Shown here: positions 77 through 6,958 of the stretch, piece by piece
Numbering within the stretch: the first letter of the stretch is position 1
Layout: every line of letters starts with the position of its first letter
IMG/VR virus record: IMGVR_UViG_3300045988_085028
Span: 1 to 21,572 of that record
DNA from: a virus
Taxonomy: Duplodnaviria; Heunggongvirae; Uroviricota; Caudoviricetes
Strand: one strand, 5' to 3'
Length of the DNA: 21,572 nucleotides
Notes under the pieces: model-generated
Database searches by the model: none
What the model saw: only the letters and a program-made list of their open reading frames with translations
What the model was told of the DNA's origin: nothing
Program-made: the position numbers and the translations under genes

Positions 77-754
77 CTAAACCGCTTTGAGCGTTCCCCG
101 AACCGTACCGACAACATATATGTCAACTATAAGGTTACCGTTACCAGACGCTGCTGAGCTCAAGGTGCATCTAAGTACGCACCCATTTTCTGTCCGAGAA
201 AACGTTCTTACGTCGTAAAGAGTTGAATCTGGTTGACCAGGAATTGCCACACCGACAAGCTCTGTTATCACATTAGGAGTTGCAACCCAACCAGTATATG
301 GATACGTTACTGTCAAATTGACAAATGAAGAGCCGGCTTGAATTGGTACTGATAACTGCTTTCTTACTACTGTATTCAACTCCCCCATTGAGGACACAAG
401 AGAAGAGTCCGGGGTGATATGAGTCATCAGGTTCACGCTGTTCAGGTTGCGCGTAATGTTAACAGCACTAATGCGGTTGGAAGTACTTTCATCCAATACA
501 GCGCTATACGCAGACAGAGCAGATTCCGAAATGATAACGCGGTTGTTAGCACTGGTAGCAGTTGCTCGCACCAATCTGTAGGTTAAGCCATTACTGTAAG
601 CACCTTTAATGTTCTGCATCAGCACCTGGTGCGAGGTCGCCCCATCCCCTAAGTACAGGAGGTTCGCACTATCTGCCGTGTCCCCATACTGACCGTCATA
701 CACTACTTGCGTATTAAGGATGTTAACACCAAATGCCCCTGCAGGGGACACCAT
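77..754 (-). CDS. Hypothetical beta-rich (S/T/N/V/G-rich) protein, 225 aa; candidate moron or lysogenic-conversion gene transcribed away from the att core
   Basis: Uninterrupted 225-codon ORF with ATG at 752-754 (MVSPAG encoded by the att core itself) and an in-frame stop immediately upstream. A GGGAG sits about 11 nt upstream. No signal peptide or TM segment is evident. I do not recognise the family. It is the only ORF of 60 aa or more in 1-878 on either strand. Confidence 0.45.
   Translation of the reverse strand: MVSPAGAFGVNILNTQVVYDGQYGDTADSANLLYLGDGATSHQVLMQNIKGAYSNGLTYRLVRATATSANNRVIISESALSAYSAVLDESTSNRISAVNITRNLNSVNLMTHITPDSSLVSSMGELNTVVRKQLSVPIQAGSSFVNLTVTYPYTGWVATPNVITELVGVAIPGQPDSTLYDVRTFSRTENGCVLRCTLSSAASGNGNLIVDIYVVGTVRGTLKAV
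738..753 (+). other. Attachment-site core: 16 bp identical to the 3' end (T-stem/acceptor/CCA) of tRNA-Arg(CCU) argW, without the rest of the tRNA
   Basis: CCTGCAGGGGACACCA at 738-753 matches the recalled 3' end of E. coli argW (...GATTCCTGCAGGGGACACCA). The sequence upstream (...caaatgcc) does not continue as a tRNA T-loop, so this looks like an attP-type core (or an attR-like junction), not an intact tRNA gene. Confidence 0.5.
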
Positions 755-914: not shown

Positions 915-2072
915 ATGCTCACCGTTAAGCAGATTGAAGCAGCAAAGCCGAAAGAAAAACCATACCGCCTACTCGATGGTAATGGCCTGTACCTTTATGT
1001 CCCTGTATCAGGGAAAAAGGTATGGCAGCTTCGCTACAAGATTGACGGTAAGGAGAAAATCCTGACCATCTGAAAATATCCGCTTATGACTTTGCAGAAG
1101 GCAAGGGATAAGGCATGGACTGCGAGGAAAGACATCTCGGTTGGCATCGATCCGGTAAAGGCGAAAAAGGCTTCGTCTAACAACAATTCCTTTAGTGCGA
1201 TTTACAAGGAATGGTACGAGCACAAGAAGCAAGTCTGGTCAGTAGGGTATGCGACTGAACTTGCAAAAATGTTTGATGACGACATTTTACCTATCATCGG
1301 CGTCCTTGAAATTCAGGATATTGAGCCGATGCAACTGCTGGAAGTAATCCGCAGATTTGAAGATCGCGGTGCAATGGAGCGAGCCAACAAAGCCCGCAGA
1401 AGATGCGGCGAGGTTTTCCGTTACGCTATTGTCACTGGTAGGGCTAAATATAACCCGGCACCTGACCTTGCTGACGCCATGAAGGGATACCGCAAGAAGA
1501 ACTTCCCATTTTTACCTGCCGACCAGATCCCGGCATTCAACAAAGCACTTGCAACATTTTCAGGAAGTATCGTATCGCTCATTGCTACTAAAATTTTACG
1601 CTACACCGCCCTAAGAACGAAAGAGCTTCGTTCCATGCAATGGAAGAACGTCGATTTTGAAAACAGGATTATCACCATCGACGCCAGTGTGATGAAGGGA
1701 CGCAAAATTCATGTGGTTCCTATGTCAGACCAGGTGGTTGAACTTCTCACTACGCTAAACTCAATCACCAAACCAGTATCAGAGTTTGTTTTTGCCGGGC
1801 GCAACGATAAGAAGAAGCCAATTTGCGAGAACGCTGTACTGCTTGTGATCAAACAAATCGGCTATGAAGGTCTGGAAAGCGGTCACGGATTCAGGCATGA
1901 ATTCAGCACGATTATGAACGAGCACGAATGGCCTGCTGATGCTATTGAAGTGCAACTGGCACATGCCAACGGCGGATCTGTGCGCGGGATTTACAACCAT
2001 GCTCAGTATCTCGATAAGCGCAGAGAAGTGATGCAGTGGTGGGCGGATTGGATTGATGAAAAGGTGGAGTGA
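915..2072 (+). pseudogene. intS: P4/IntS-family tyrosine integrase (about 385 codons) interrupted by an in-frame TGA at 1071-1073
   Basis: ORF-track segments 879..1073 and 1086..2072 are in the same frame and together read as one integrase: an N-terminal arm-binding (DUF4102-like) region MLTVKQIEAAKPKEKPYRLLDGNGLYLYVPVSGKKVWQLRYKIDGKEKILTI, then TGA, then KYPLMTLQKARDKAW and the catalytic domain. From memory this is close to E. coli IntS (CPS-53/KpLE1), which has TVGKYP where this window has TI-stop-KYP. The likely start is ATG at 915; position 879 is a GTG lying inside repeat motifs. The 328-aa downstream ORF alone would lack the arm-binding domain. Confidence 0.7.
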
Positions 2073-2088
2073 TCCACCTTTTCTGTTA
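2061..2088 (+). terminator. Intrinsic terminator hairpin between convergent int and tailspike, possibly bidirectional
   Basis: AAGGTGGA (2061-2068), loop GTGA, TCCACCTT (2073-2080), followed by TTCTGTT on the + strand. The int stop codon lies in the loop, and an A-rich run precedes the stem on the - strand. Confidence 0.6.
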
Positions 2089-2089
2089 A

Positions 2090-4084
2090 TTATTCAGCCT
2101 TAGCAAAAGTGGTCATAGTTGTTCCACTGAAAGTGAATGACCTGTCTGTAAGAGTAACATCCTGAATAGCAAAGTAATCGCCAACACCAGCGCCATTTAC
2201 ATAAAACTCGAATATCTCAGATGTATTTTCCGGAATAATATTATTAGCAATATAACACGTAGATAAAGAACCATTTGTTGATGGTAAAGTTCCAAATAGC
2301 GTTGCATCCGATGCAGCATATATCGAACTGCTTAAATAAATATTTATATCAACATTACTCTCATAAGTAACAATTAAGTACACCCGGTCGTTAACCTTCC
2401 ACCCTCTGTCTTTTATCTTAGTATTAAGTGATAGCTTGTTAGAACTAGGGTTCGTTACGGTATTAATGGTTATTTTTGCTCCTATTGAGTTGTATCTGCT
2501 TCTGGTTACTGTATTACCAGTATTGTTCATTGTATAAAGGATTGCCCTGCTTTCTGCAAACGTCCTCATATTGATCTTGCCTAAACAATCTCCTTCCATA
2601 ACTTGTGGGCCAGACACAGTTGCACCAATATAACAATCAGTAAATACAGCATGAGCCCTGTTGTCAGTGCTTGATGCAAGTAATGAAAGTTTAAAGTTGC
2701 CCTGATCTGCAATCCAGCAACTATCAACCTTAACTACAGCATCATTGTCAAGAACAACAAACCTTCCTCCCTCATTGTAATATCCTACAAAAGCATTTAC
2801 ACCGCTTATTTTTACTACTCCATCTGGAACCGTAAAGATATCGCCTTGTATCGCTTCGCCATAGTACCCGCCAACAATATTGGTCACTCGGGTATTTAAG
2901 TACATGCCATGCCCAATGCCGAACTCAAGGTCACATCCAATTAAGCTTAAACCTTCAATAGGGGAAGTACCAGAAGCATAAAAGGCATATTCACCGACCT
3001 TATTTGATGCAAATCCACAGTTATTGAACGTTACGCGGTTGTTAGCCCCAGCAAGGTGAACTCCGCGATTTGGCGCAGGAACAAAAGAACAGCAATCATA
3101 GGTATTAAGCCAGTCGTTTATAGTATAGAAGTTCGCCACCGCGCCATTGATGAAACGACAATTATGGGTTCTTCCTAGGTGAACATATTGAATTCGGCAA
3201 GGATAGTTGGCGATGTTGTTCCCATCAACTGTAACGTGAGAGATAGATGTGCTACGTCTTATAGAGTCAGTTTCGTAGTACATGTTGACAACTGCCTCTC
3301 CAGTGAACCCACTCCCCGCAATAATGAATGACTTCTCAACGCCATCCCCGAATAGGTCAACAGTGCCTATTGTTAAATCAACTGGTGACTTAACATAGTA
3401 AGTTCCTGCAGGGACAAACAGCCTCTTTCCTGCCGATAAAGCAACTGCTGCAGCAGCATTAAAGCTAGCTGAGTTATCTGCCGCTGGATCACCAGTAATG
3501 GGGAAAAATTGAGCAACAGAAATATAATCTGCTACCGTCACTTCGTACCATGGCAAAGCAGGAGATGACGGAAGAGTGCCACTACCACCGGTGTAGATTT
3601 TATTATTATACCACCACCAGTTATCAACATTAGATAACGCCCCCTCCTGCCATACACCGCCTAACGAGAAATCAAGACCGTAAGAAGTAGCTATCTGACT
3701 TAATGATAATGTTGCCCCTCTGTCAGAAGCTAATTCTTGCCTTAATTGGTCAGGGTCATACTTCAGGACATTAGGAAAATAGAACTGCTGCGCACCGTAC
3801 GCATCATAAACAGCCATAGAATGGCCTTGCACAGTTACGAATTTGGCAATCTGTCCGTTATATACAGGATAACCAGCAGCGTTAATGATGATTGGTTGCG
3901 AAACAGGAACGTGAGAACCGTCTTCGTTCTCTACATAAACCGGAATCTGGTTTTCAGTATTTACCGGGTCAGTGTCAATTTTACCGATATAAATTTTGCC
4001 ATTAGCTACGGCTTTAAAAGAACGCGCCATAGTGAAGAGTTGCGAAGGCATGCTAACTACAACATTGGCTGTAATGTCTGTCAT
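2090..4084 (-). CDS. Tailspike protein: P22 gp9-type N-terminal head-binding domain fused to a divergent beta-helix receptor-binding/depolymerase domain (664 aa)
   Basis: The N-terminal ~110 aa ([42 protein letters not shown]...VLKYDPDQ) match the conserved P22/Sf6 tailspike head-binding domain from memory. The remainder is not P22- or Sf6-like, is AT-richer, and has asparagine/glycine-ladder character typical of right-handed beta-helix depolymerases. A GGAG lies about 9 nt upstream of the ATG at 4082-4084. Confidence 0.9.
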
Positions 4085-4140: not shown

Positions 4141-4166
4141 ATAAAAAACCCAGCCGAAGCTGGGTC
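4141..4166 (-). terminator. Rho-independent terminator upstream of the tailspike, downstream of the ancestral ant reading frame
   Basis: On the - strand: CCCAGC-TTCG-GCTGGG (+ strand 4149-4164) followed by TTTTTTAT (complement of 4141-4148). Position matches the ant/gene 9 terminator arrangement of P22. Confidence 0.6.
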
Positions 4167-5413: not shown

Positions 5414-5668
5414 ATGGCTAGAGATGATCCGCACTTTAACTTCCGCATGCCTTTGGAAGTGAGAGAAAAATTGAAATTCAGAGCAGAGGCGAATGGGAGA
5501 TCCATGAACTCCGAGCTGTTGCAAATCGTCCAAGATGCTCTATCGAGACCATCTCCTGTAAAAGGTAATCGCAATGAAGCTGAACGATTAGCCGAGATGC
5601 AGGCTGAACAGTTCAAGTCTGTGGTATTTGAGACACTTAAAAACATGTATGGCAAGGATGCAAAATGA
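5414..5668 (+). CDS. mnt: Mnt maintenance repressor (84 aa)
   Basis: MARDDPHFNFRMPLEVREKLKFRAEANGRSMNSELLQIVQDAL... matches P22 Mnt from memory. GGAG lies 8 nt upstream of the ATG. Its stop overlaps the next start (ATGA). Confidence 0.9.
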   Translation: MARDDPHFNFRMPLEVREKLKFRAEANGRSMNSELLQIVQDALSRPSPVKGNRNEAERLAEMQAEQFKSVVFETLKNMYGKDAK

Positions 5669-6246
5669 TCGATTACAACCCAGCAAAAAAAGAAATCATC
5701 GCAGCTAAAAAGTGCCTAGAGCAGATGAAATCATCTACAAACCATGATGATTTTGAAATGCACTGGCGAGAATGTCTTGGGCATATAGAAAAGTCTTTCA
5801 GTAAGTTGCTCTGTGCAACAAAGCCGGTTAGTGGAAAATTTAGCAGCCACTTCAACCAAAAGTTCATGCTTAGAAAAACAGACAAAACACTTGCTTACCT
5901 TCACCAGGCAAGGAATGCTGATCATCATTCCACTATGGAAATCTCAAAACTTGAACCTCCTTATACTACTCTTGGGGCATTTCCGGGAGCAAGAAGTCAT
6001 TATATTAAAGAGTTAATCATTGATTCAACAGGGGAAATAGCAAAATACGAAGGCGACCCTATGATAGTTGAGTTTCATCCAGCAACAACTATGCCTATAA
6101 CCGTAAGAAACCAAGGCAAAGATTATCCACCTCCAACAGAACATCTTGGCGAAAAGCTTGTTGATATACATCCATCTGTTCTTGCCTATCTCGGTATACA
6201 ATTTTATGAAAAATGGATAGATGAGTCGTGTGCAACGTTTAGATAG
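5665..6246 (+). CDS. Hypothetical soluble protein (193 aa), translationally coupled to mnt; function unknown
   Basis: ATG at 5665-5667 overlaps the mnt stop (TGA 5666-5668). Uninterrupted ORF in an AT-rich segment. No TM segments. I do not recognise the family. Confidence 0.6.
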   Translation: MIDYNPAKKEIIAAKKCLEQMKSSTNHDDFEMHWRECLGHIEKSFSKLLCATKPVSGKFSSHFNQKFMLRKTDKTLAYLHQARNADHHSTMEISKLEPPYTTLGAFPGARSHYIKELIIDSTGEIAKYEGDPMIVEFHPATTMPITVRNQGKDYPPPTEHLGEKLVDIHPSVLAYLGIQFYEKWIDESCATFR

Positions 6247-6463
6247 TTATTTTTGATAATTTCAAGTATTTCCTCTTGACTTTGATTTACCCAAACGTGA
6301 TCACACTCATGAAACCAGATTATGCTTCCTGTTTCGCCTTGTGCAATATAGGTGATCATGTTTTCATTAACAATTATTACTGAGTTATCATGTGCGCAAT
6401 TTAGTTTTATCAATTCGCATATCCTATCGTGACAAAGTAACTAGAAAAACTAAAGAGGTTGGT

Positions 6464-6958
6464 GTGTCTGATTCTATGAGTTACGCTGTGCTAGTTGCCG
6501 CAACTCTATTTATGGGGATAGGGTTGCAGATTGCGTGGTTCTTTTTTTCTAGTTTTATTAAACGCAAAAGAATTGAATCAAGGATATCTGAGATTTCTAT
6601 TGCTATAGGGAAAAATGCTGAAAATCCAGAGAATGAGGCCTGCGCACTGAATTACCTTAAAGAAAAGTTTTCCCCTGAAAAATTTGAAAATAGAATTACT
6701 GATGCTCTTGGATTGGTAATATCAGTAATTCATACGCCACTAAGTTTGCTGATAACAGTGTGGTACTTCGCCATGATCGCCGGAAGAATATTTGGTTTAA
6801 TGAATATAGAGCCTGTAGTTCTTTGGGTTCCAATGATACTGCAACTGTTGTTAAGCGTTGCTATCTTTATTTTTTCTGTTTTTATAAAAATTGTCTTTGG
6901 AAGATACCCCGGAGAAGCTAAGGGATTTAATAAAGAATTCATAAAAACTATAAAATAA
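6464..6958 (+). CDS. Predicted inner-membrane protein (about 4 TM helices) at the position of P22 sieA; candidate superinfection-exclusion protein
   Basis: Hydrophobic segments [47 protein letters not shown] and [24 protein letters not shown]. The ORF track starts at GTG 6392 with no RBS. GTG 6464 has AAAGAGG 6 nt upstream; ATG 6476 is the alternative. Stop at 6956-6958. Lies between mnt and gp16 like P22 sieA, but sequence similarity to SieA is not established. Confidence 0.55.

Follow-up and report, generated by a model that had tools for sequence, protein, structure and literature searches.

A P22-like Escherichia coli prophage tailspike with an exchanged receptor domain and O141 as its predicted target

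The tailspike gene in a 21,572-nt virus sequence (IMG/VR record IMGVR_UViG_3300045988_085028, the whole of which was analysed and is called the window below) begins like those of P22 and Sf6 and then departs from them, which raises the questions of what the remainder of the protein is, how it was joined to its anchor and which surface it recognises. A sequence-only reading had described the gene as a two-part mosaic, a P22/Sf6 head-binding domain joined to an unrelated, AT-rich beta-helix. We favour, with moderate confidence, an account in which this is a four-module tailspike of a P22-like E. coli prophage, its receptor cassette moved by homologous recombination and its target the O141 antigen. 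Coordinates are collected in Table 1.

Table 1. Features of the tailspike region in the window, and prophage contexts and anchor/receptor combinations of the receptor domain in E. coli genomes
Feature	Position	Strand	Remarks
Tailspike gene	2090..4084	(-)	Uninterrupted ORF, 664 codons plus stop; complete
Module 1, P22-type head-binding (anchor) domain, aa 1-113	3746..4084	(-)	Pfam PF09008, phmmer, identity counts
Module 2, conserved linker of about 60 aa, aa 114-175	3560..3745	(-)	Near-invariant across proteins with different N-termini
Module 3, right-handed parallel beta-helix (predicted), about aa 176-500	2585..3559	(-)	Capping helix aa 205-217, rungs about aa 221-499
Module 4, C-terminal beta-sandwich (predicted), about aa 501-664	2093..2584	(-)	All-beta, pLDDT 84-97; follows the helix collinearly across nearly the whole family
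Candidate catalytic acids	2855..2926	(-)	E387 2924-2926, E410 2855-2857; D385 2930-2932 beside
AT-rich part of tailspike gene	2093-2704	(-)	GC profile
intS integrase	915..2072	(+)	Convergent with tailspike; in-frame TGA at codon 53 (1071-1073)
3' end of intS and intergenic DNA, co-transferred right-hand arm	1950..2089	(.)	ETEC4090 identity; 135-nt pseudogene fragment
Hairpin with 11-bp stem spanning the intS stop codon, between convergent intS and tailspike	2058..2083	(.)	Terminator scan
Terminator-like hairpin upstream of tailspike start	4147..4166	(-)	Terminator scan; position of P22 t-ant
Context 1, P22-like prophage beside argW			VG48B2
Context 2, P22-like prophage beside bioA-ybhB			UMNF18, P13-6
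Context 3, P22-like prophage beside dacD			ST12468, ET245; identical protein accession
Context 4, other podovirus-type prophage			ETEC4090, ETEC1716; residues 121-664 behind a 219-aa anchor
Anchor/receptor combinations	L014 4494-6875 (VG48B2), L002 11343-13634 (ETEC4090), L003 4001-6085		Both phiV10-type constructs keep the 135-nt intS fragment

The P22-type anchor and the end of its homology

By its anchor and its genomic position the gene is a P22-like (Lederbergvirus-type) tailspike. The window ORFs are collinear with gp16, gp20, gp7, gp14, gp26, gp10, gp4, coat, scaffold, portal and terminase, and are 93–97% identical to the annotated prophages of E. coli VG48B2 and 2018-01-1CC. As in P22, Sf6, HK620 and CUS-3, which share the anchor (77–98% amino acid identity) and the overall plan of anchor, beta-helix and C-terminal domain, the tailspike lies downstream of the ejection-protein genes and the immI (arc/mnt/ant) region, and it stands beside the integrase end as in Sf6 and HK620. 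The annotations of P22 and HK620 also place a terminator between ant and gene 9. The window differs in the gap between tailspike and integrase, which holds oac in Sf6, a wzy-like gene in HK620 and gtrABC in P22, whereas the window has no O-antigen modification gene there. A 100% identical copy of the protein in VG48B2 is named ‘phage tailspike protein’ in RefSeq, and PHROG 7173 (‘tail spike protein’) matches the tailspike over its full length (E 4.9e-190), the receptor domain by itself scoring E 6.5e-90. This PHROG is a sequence family with only a predicted function, and the receptor domain occurs in none of 50,697 phage genomes.

The anchor is covered by the full length of Pfam Head_binding (PF09008, aa 1–113, E 3.5e-66), and its phmmer matches in the PDB are the N-termini of Sf6, P22 and HK620-type tailspikes. 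Identical positions over the 113 residues number 111 for CUS-3, 109 for HK620, 103 for Sf6 and 87 for P22, hence the anchor is nearest to CUS-3 and HK620. Near-identity of the first ~110 residues to P22 and Sf6, as initially claimed, is a fair description for Sf6 (91%) and a generous one for P22 (77% amino acid, 73% nucleotide identity).

The divergence noted beyond this domain was borne out. DNA homology to the four phages begins 5' of the start codon and ends at gene nucleotide 340 (P22), 341 (Sf6), 345 (HK620) or 355 (CUS-3), which locates the junction at codons 113–118, at or directly past the YDPDQ motif. Megablast matches against 50,697 phage records were confined to the first ~355 nt of the gene, and tblastn of aa 121–664 against the same records returned no match. 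Megablast, phmmer, tblastn and a BFVD fold search revealed no full-length identity to a characterised tailspike; in the last of these, nothing above 19% identity to the receptor domain was found.

The linker and exchange of the receptor domain

The gene is more than a two-part mosaic of anchor and helix, as a third module of about 60 residues (aa 114–175), absent from CUS-3, HK620, Sf6 and P22, sits between them. This linker is near-invariant behind head-binding domains, PF18668 (TSP1/gp66-type), T7-tail-fibre-like PF03906 and at least one further N-terminal type. Among 124 collected proteins phmmer detected it in P0001–P0026 and P0066 and found it absent from the other distant relatives of the receptor domain; the linker is thus not intrinsic to the receptor-domain family. 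A second C-terminal domain (‘P0015 type’), unrelated to that of the window, is likewise found behind this linker. DNA homology to a P0015-type gene begins ahead of the start codon and stops at nucleotide 518 (codon 173), and homology to the ETEC4090 gene begins at nucleotide 363 (codon 121), the linker being a recombination joint on both sides in these comparisons. Linker DNA is confined to 13 complete E. coli genomes of the 5426 searched, and 11 of these are O141; tblastn against the 50,697 phage records gave one weak match, to Erwinia phage MIF8. Its AlphaFold2 confidence is low to moderate (pLDDT 51–74). In the PDB, phmmer returned sub-significant matches (E 0.05–0.7), of which about 40 of 46 were SH3 domains (Src, Fyn, Yes), with alignments resting on the motif DFS.GG...WW...TG.G.LPS; the linker is possibly an SH3-like mini-domain, a lead and not a finding.

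The anchor was matched in 1133 of the 5426 E. coli genomes and the whole receptor domain in seven: VG48B2 (100% identity) and ST12468, ET245, UMNF18, P13-6, ETEC1716 and ETEC4090 (98.5–99.4%). The 219-aa anchor of ETEC4090 and ETEC1716 is 78–82% identical to those of phiV10, TL-2011b, SPN1S and epsilon15-like phages, and across the two anchor types the receptor domain retains 97.6–99% amino acid identity. The presence of one receptor domain behind two anchors and in four prophage contexts substantiates the view of a mosaic with an exchanged receptor-binding part.

Comparison of flanking DNA delimits the exchanged segment. Window positions 1950–3722 are 98.5% identical to ETEC4090 (L002 13774–12001), where homology continues 140 nt past the tailspike stop codon, through the hairpin, which is a probable bidirectional terminator, and into the 3' end of intS, kept as a 135-nt pseudogene fragment. 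Retention of this fragment in ETEC4090 indicates that the P22-like, intS-adjacent arrangement was the donor. In UMNF18, homology to the window starts at 1989. VG48B2 carries the reciprocal construct, an epsilon15/phiV10-type anchor followed by the linker, the P0015-type domain and then the 135-nt intS fragment; therefore all four combinations of the two anchors and two unrelated receptor domains exist in O141 strains, each through the same linker. Between the window and the P22-like prophage of VG48B2 (L001) there are zero mismatches from ~1722 to ~4090 (2.4 kb, the 3' third of intS and the whole tailspike gene), whereas the 5' part of intS differs by 3% and the DNA upstream of the tailspike by >10%. 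A block of this kind with divergent flanks indicates a very recent whole-gene exchange between different P22-like prophages.

The receptor-binding part (aa ~121–664) is thus a cassette moving by homologous recombination, with its left crossover in or beside the anchor–linker region and its right crossover in the intS 3' end and hairpin. Conceivably, the linker (possibly SH3-like) and the intS fragment with its hairpin serve as left and right homology arms that make the receptor domain portable among temperate phages of enterobacteria. One of the two O141 receptor domains travels with putative O-antigen-modifying genes (wzy-like, acyltransferase), so the pair might read native and phage-converted forms of one O-antigen, a speculative extension for which the relationship of Salmonella epsilon15 and epsilon34 is the counterpart.

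Fold, candidate active site and probable target of the receptor domain

An AlphaFold2 model of residues 115–664 (monomer, 64-sequence alignment; mean pLDDT 89.5, pTM 0.84) shows a capping helix, a run of short strands that form a right-handed parallel beta-helix and end near aa 500, and a C-terminal domain that is all beta. The predicted beta-helix is of the depolymerase type, in keeping with the sequence-only reading, and its nearest solved folds include phage depolymerases: 7chu (Geobacillus virus E2 ORF18), CBA120 TSP2 and TSP4, the Klebsiella K2-2 tailspike and Depo32, together with AlgE4, at 10–19% identity. TM-scores to these structures are about 0.4–0.5, and their substrates are unrelated and their catalytic residues not transferable. 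Pfam PF12708 (Pect-lyase_RHGA_epim) matches aa 194–295 weakly but above threshold (36.8 bits against a cutoff of 27); by this match and the predicted fold, the receptor domain is assigned to the pectate-lyase-like beta-helix superfamily.

With a profile built from the family, 7chu is found at E 7e-23 and the Sf6 tailspike at E 2.4e-21, in the latter case over the N-terminal half of the helix only (Sf6 residues 101–339), and a single-sequence phmmer search reaches Sf6 residues 160–267 marginally (i-E 0.0017). Calling the beta-helix unrelated was therefore too strong, as its N-terminal half is distantly homologous to the Sf6 helix, of which it is a very distant relative. The receptor domains of HK620, CUS-3 and P22 have no recognisable similarity to it. 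The acid pair of Sf6 is E366 and D399, and the Sf6 match ends at residue 339, with no alignment of the Sf6-type catalytic region in either the profile or the phmmer search; because this region does not align, the tailspike falls outside the Sf6 endorhamnosidase group. A HMMER scan of 1.84 billion representatives recovered 102 relatives at E<=1e-3, of which one (P0005, 57%) exceeded 50% identity and the rest were at 32% or less; the gene for P0005 lies behind those for tape measure and distal tail on a siphovirus-like contig of 47 kb.

Within the helix, E387 and E410 are the sole acids conserved in at least 90% of the 64-sequence alignment and lie 23 residues, one rung, apart. Together with D385 they are invariant in a 10-sequence alignment, and H302, N348 and Y407 are conserved too. 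This conservation makes E387 and E410 putative catalytic residues. Two glutamates one rung apart are typical of beta-helix hydrolases (GH28 and the P22, Sf6 and HK620 tailspikes), and we tentatively propose a hydrolytic mechanism through this pair. A polysaccharide lyase that attacks a uronic acid by beta-elimination is the main chemical rival, epimerases and lyases being among the nearest folds, but seems a rather improbable alternative: the conserved glutamate pair is of the hydrolase kind, and the pathway genes of the O141 cluster are those for dTDP-L-rhamnose and GDP-mannose, with none for a uronic acid, though ugd adjoins the cluster.

P22, Sf6 and HK620 carry six tailspike trimers per tail and cleave O-antigen. 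By analogy, the head-binding anchor would fix a trimer to the tail, six such trimers would attach in this way, and the groove of the beta-helix would bind long O-antigen chains and most likely cleave them; the C-terminal beta-sandwich would complete the protein, and endoglycosidase cleavage through E387 and E410 on adjacent rungs would let the virion work its way down to the outer membrane. On the same analogy a depolymerase role is predicted for the receptor domain. PHROG 8280, a tailspike family labelled ‘colanic acid degradation’, was also considered and set aside: its match comes from the anchor and the receptor domain alone misses it, therefore no inference on colanic acid is drawn.

The hosts of the receptor domain point to a particular glycan. 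VG48B2 has an O-antigen cluster with annotated O141 wzx and wzy, rmlBDAC, manC, manB and four glycosyltransferases. O141 wzy is present in 14 of the 5426 genomes, and five of the seven receptor-domain carriers are among these (one-sided Fisher p 1e-12, a value inflated by likely clonality among porcine isolates). The carriers come from porcine ETEC, human blood, a farm environment and a frog. All five genome records that hold a complete P0015-type domain are O141 (Fisher 5e-14). As the receptor domain is found almost only in O141 E. coli, the O141 O-antigen is its probable substrate, held with moderate confidence, and the distinct O-antigen or capsule specificity first proposed can be narrowed, by host association, to serogroup O141.

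The two carriers lacking O141 wzy are UMNF18, which PMC4551483 assigns to O147, and ET245, whose different O-antigen cluster lies between IS1 copies. Prophage and integration site are in each case shared with an O141 strain (UMNF18 with P13-6, ET245 with ST12468), from which we infer inheritance through an O-antigen switch. These two exceptions could instead suggest that the target is another surface polysaccharide, a K-type capsule or exopolysaccharide, co-inherited with the carrier lineages; many structural neighbours are capsule depolymerases, and with two unrelated receptor domains both associated with O141, at least one could read something else. We consider this unlikely, given the diverse sources of the carriers, among which the O141 cluster is the sole glycan feature tested that most share, the shared sites that fit an O-antigen switch, and the typical O-antigen specificity of receptor-binding proteins (RBPs) from Lederberg- and Uetake-type prophages (PMC10408124).

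The host-association argument for O141 is the one that Pas et al. 2023 (PMC10408124) apply to the RBP subtypes of Lederberg- and Uetakevirus prophages, in which one receptor-binding domain (RBD) occurs on P22/HK620- and phiV10/epsilon15-type anchors within one serogroup. The same holds here, with one RBD subtype behind Lederberg-type and Uetake-type anchors in hosts sharing a serogroup, and the anchor lengths match the delineation at 124 and 205 aa in that study. O141 was not among its 14 serogroups, and it described conserved flanking motifs for lytic genera only, not for Lederbergvirus and Uetakevirus prophages, whereas the phages here are temperate and have the linker upstream and the intS fragment and hairpin downstream. 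Our literature search retrieved no paper on this receptor domain or its predicted serogroup specificity.

The biology confirms textbook tailspike modularity and brings no new principle; what is new is limited to an uncharacterised receptor domain, its predicted serogroup, the linker module and the cassette arms in temperate phages. O141 E. coli rank among the classical agents of post-weaning diarrhoea and oedema disease in pigs, and a defined O141-specific tailspike domain could serve to detect the serogroup, to retarget phages or tailocins or, as a predicted O141-specific depolymerase, in its own right. In the O141 strains, the shuffling of receptor domains between two podovirus lineages can also be seen in an unusually clean natural form, and a two-by-two set of anchors and receptor domains with identifiable arms on both sides provides a design rule for the RBPs of temperate phages.

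Base composition, integrity of the prophage and neighbouring remnants

The drop in base composition said to follow the N-terminal domain was not found, as GC is flat across the junction (42.8% for aa 1–113, 43.5% for aa 114–175 and 43.7% for aa 176–460), and the label of an AT-rich beta-helix does not hold for a helix at 43.7%. GC falls gradually toward the 3' end, the AT-rich part being limited to the C-terminal third (last ~200 codons), where aa 461–664 have 37.1% GC and GC3 declines from 36% to 30%. The whole tailspike gene, anchor included, is below the 47–51% GC of the adjacent head and ejection genes. This fall could mark the C-terminal third as a separately acquired module with a second junction inside the receptor-binding part, but it is gradual, and in nearly all relatives among the 1.84 billion representatives the alignment spans roughly residues 10–480 of a query of 489 residues, with the helix and C-terminal domain co-occurring. 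P0005 (57–58% identical) is collinear to the last residue, and no E. coli or phage sequence matched only one of the two parts. We therefore rejected a second junction as very improbable.

The window intS has TGA at codon 53, where VG48B2 and K-12-type IntS have GGA (Gly), and is otherwise collinear; the P13-6 copy is annotated with an ‘internal stop’. The prophage, judged from this codon, may therefore be unable to excise. The nonsense codon in intS, and a VG48B2 copy housed in a prophage that IS elements have disrupted, could point to a relic of a defective prophage or a tailspike that binds without enzyme activity, which is the least probable of the readings considered, since the ORF is intact and 98.5–100% conserved in seven genomes and four contexts, the acidic pair and helix fold are retained across the family down to 20–30% identity, and the window has a complete-looking P22-like set of head, portal, terminase and ejection genes. 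This reading and that of a glycan other than the O-antigen are both less likely than cleavage of the O141 antigen.

Window positions 80–748 (minus strand) hold a 5'-truncated remnant of a second tailspike, with 76% protein identity to residues 475–695 of a 695-aa P0015-type tailspike. Its 760-bp segment is at least 99% identical in eight O141 genome records, and in P13-6, close to bioA-ybhB, it has an acyltransferase gene on one side and intS on the other. At 739–754 the sequence CTGCAGGGGACACCAT, which we take to be the 16-nt core of a KplE1/Sf6/HK620-type att site, exactly matches the 3' end of the VG48B2 tRNA-Arg (argW), at the point where homology to VG48B2 begins; no whole tRNA was found in the window. 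A core abutting the truncated remnant suggests that an older prophage contained a secondary site at which integration or recombination took place.

Genes downstream of the P0015-type tailspike or its remnant were found at L003 6153–7493, L014 6943–8283 and L015 4885–6000. Behind the P0015-type tailspike comes a protein of 446 aa with weak similarity to Wzy_C (E 9e-5, below the Pfam cutoff), and behind the P13-6 remnant an acyltransferase family protein; both are probably O-antigen-modifying, and no such gene accompanies the window-type tailspike. The P0015-type receptor domain itself (P0015 aa ~180–695) matched no Pfam or PHROG family, and its AlphaFold2 model from 11 sequences was poor (pLDDT 52.9), so this domain is less understood than that of the window and equally tied to O141.

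A low-GC island (33–37%) occupies window positions 5665–6958, between the immI-like region and the ejection genes, and contains an ORF of 193 aa (5665–6246) and a hydrophobic one of 188 aa (6392–6958). P22, ET245 and ST12468 have sieA at the same position, thus the island is probably a superinfection-exclusion or moron locus.
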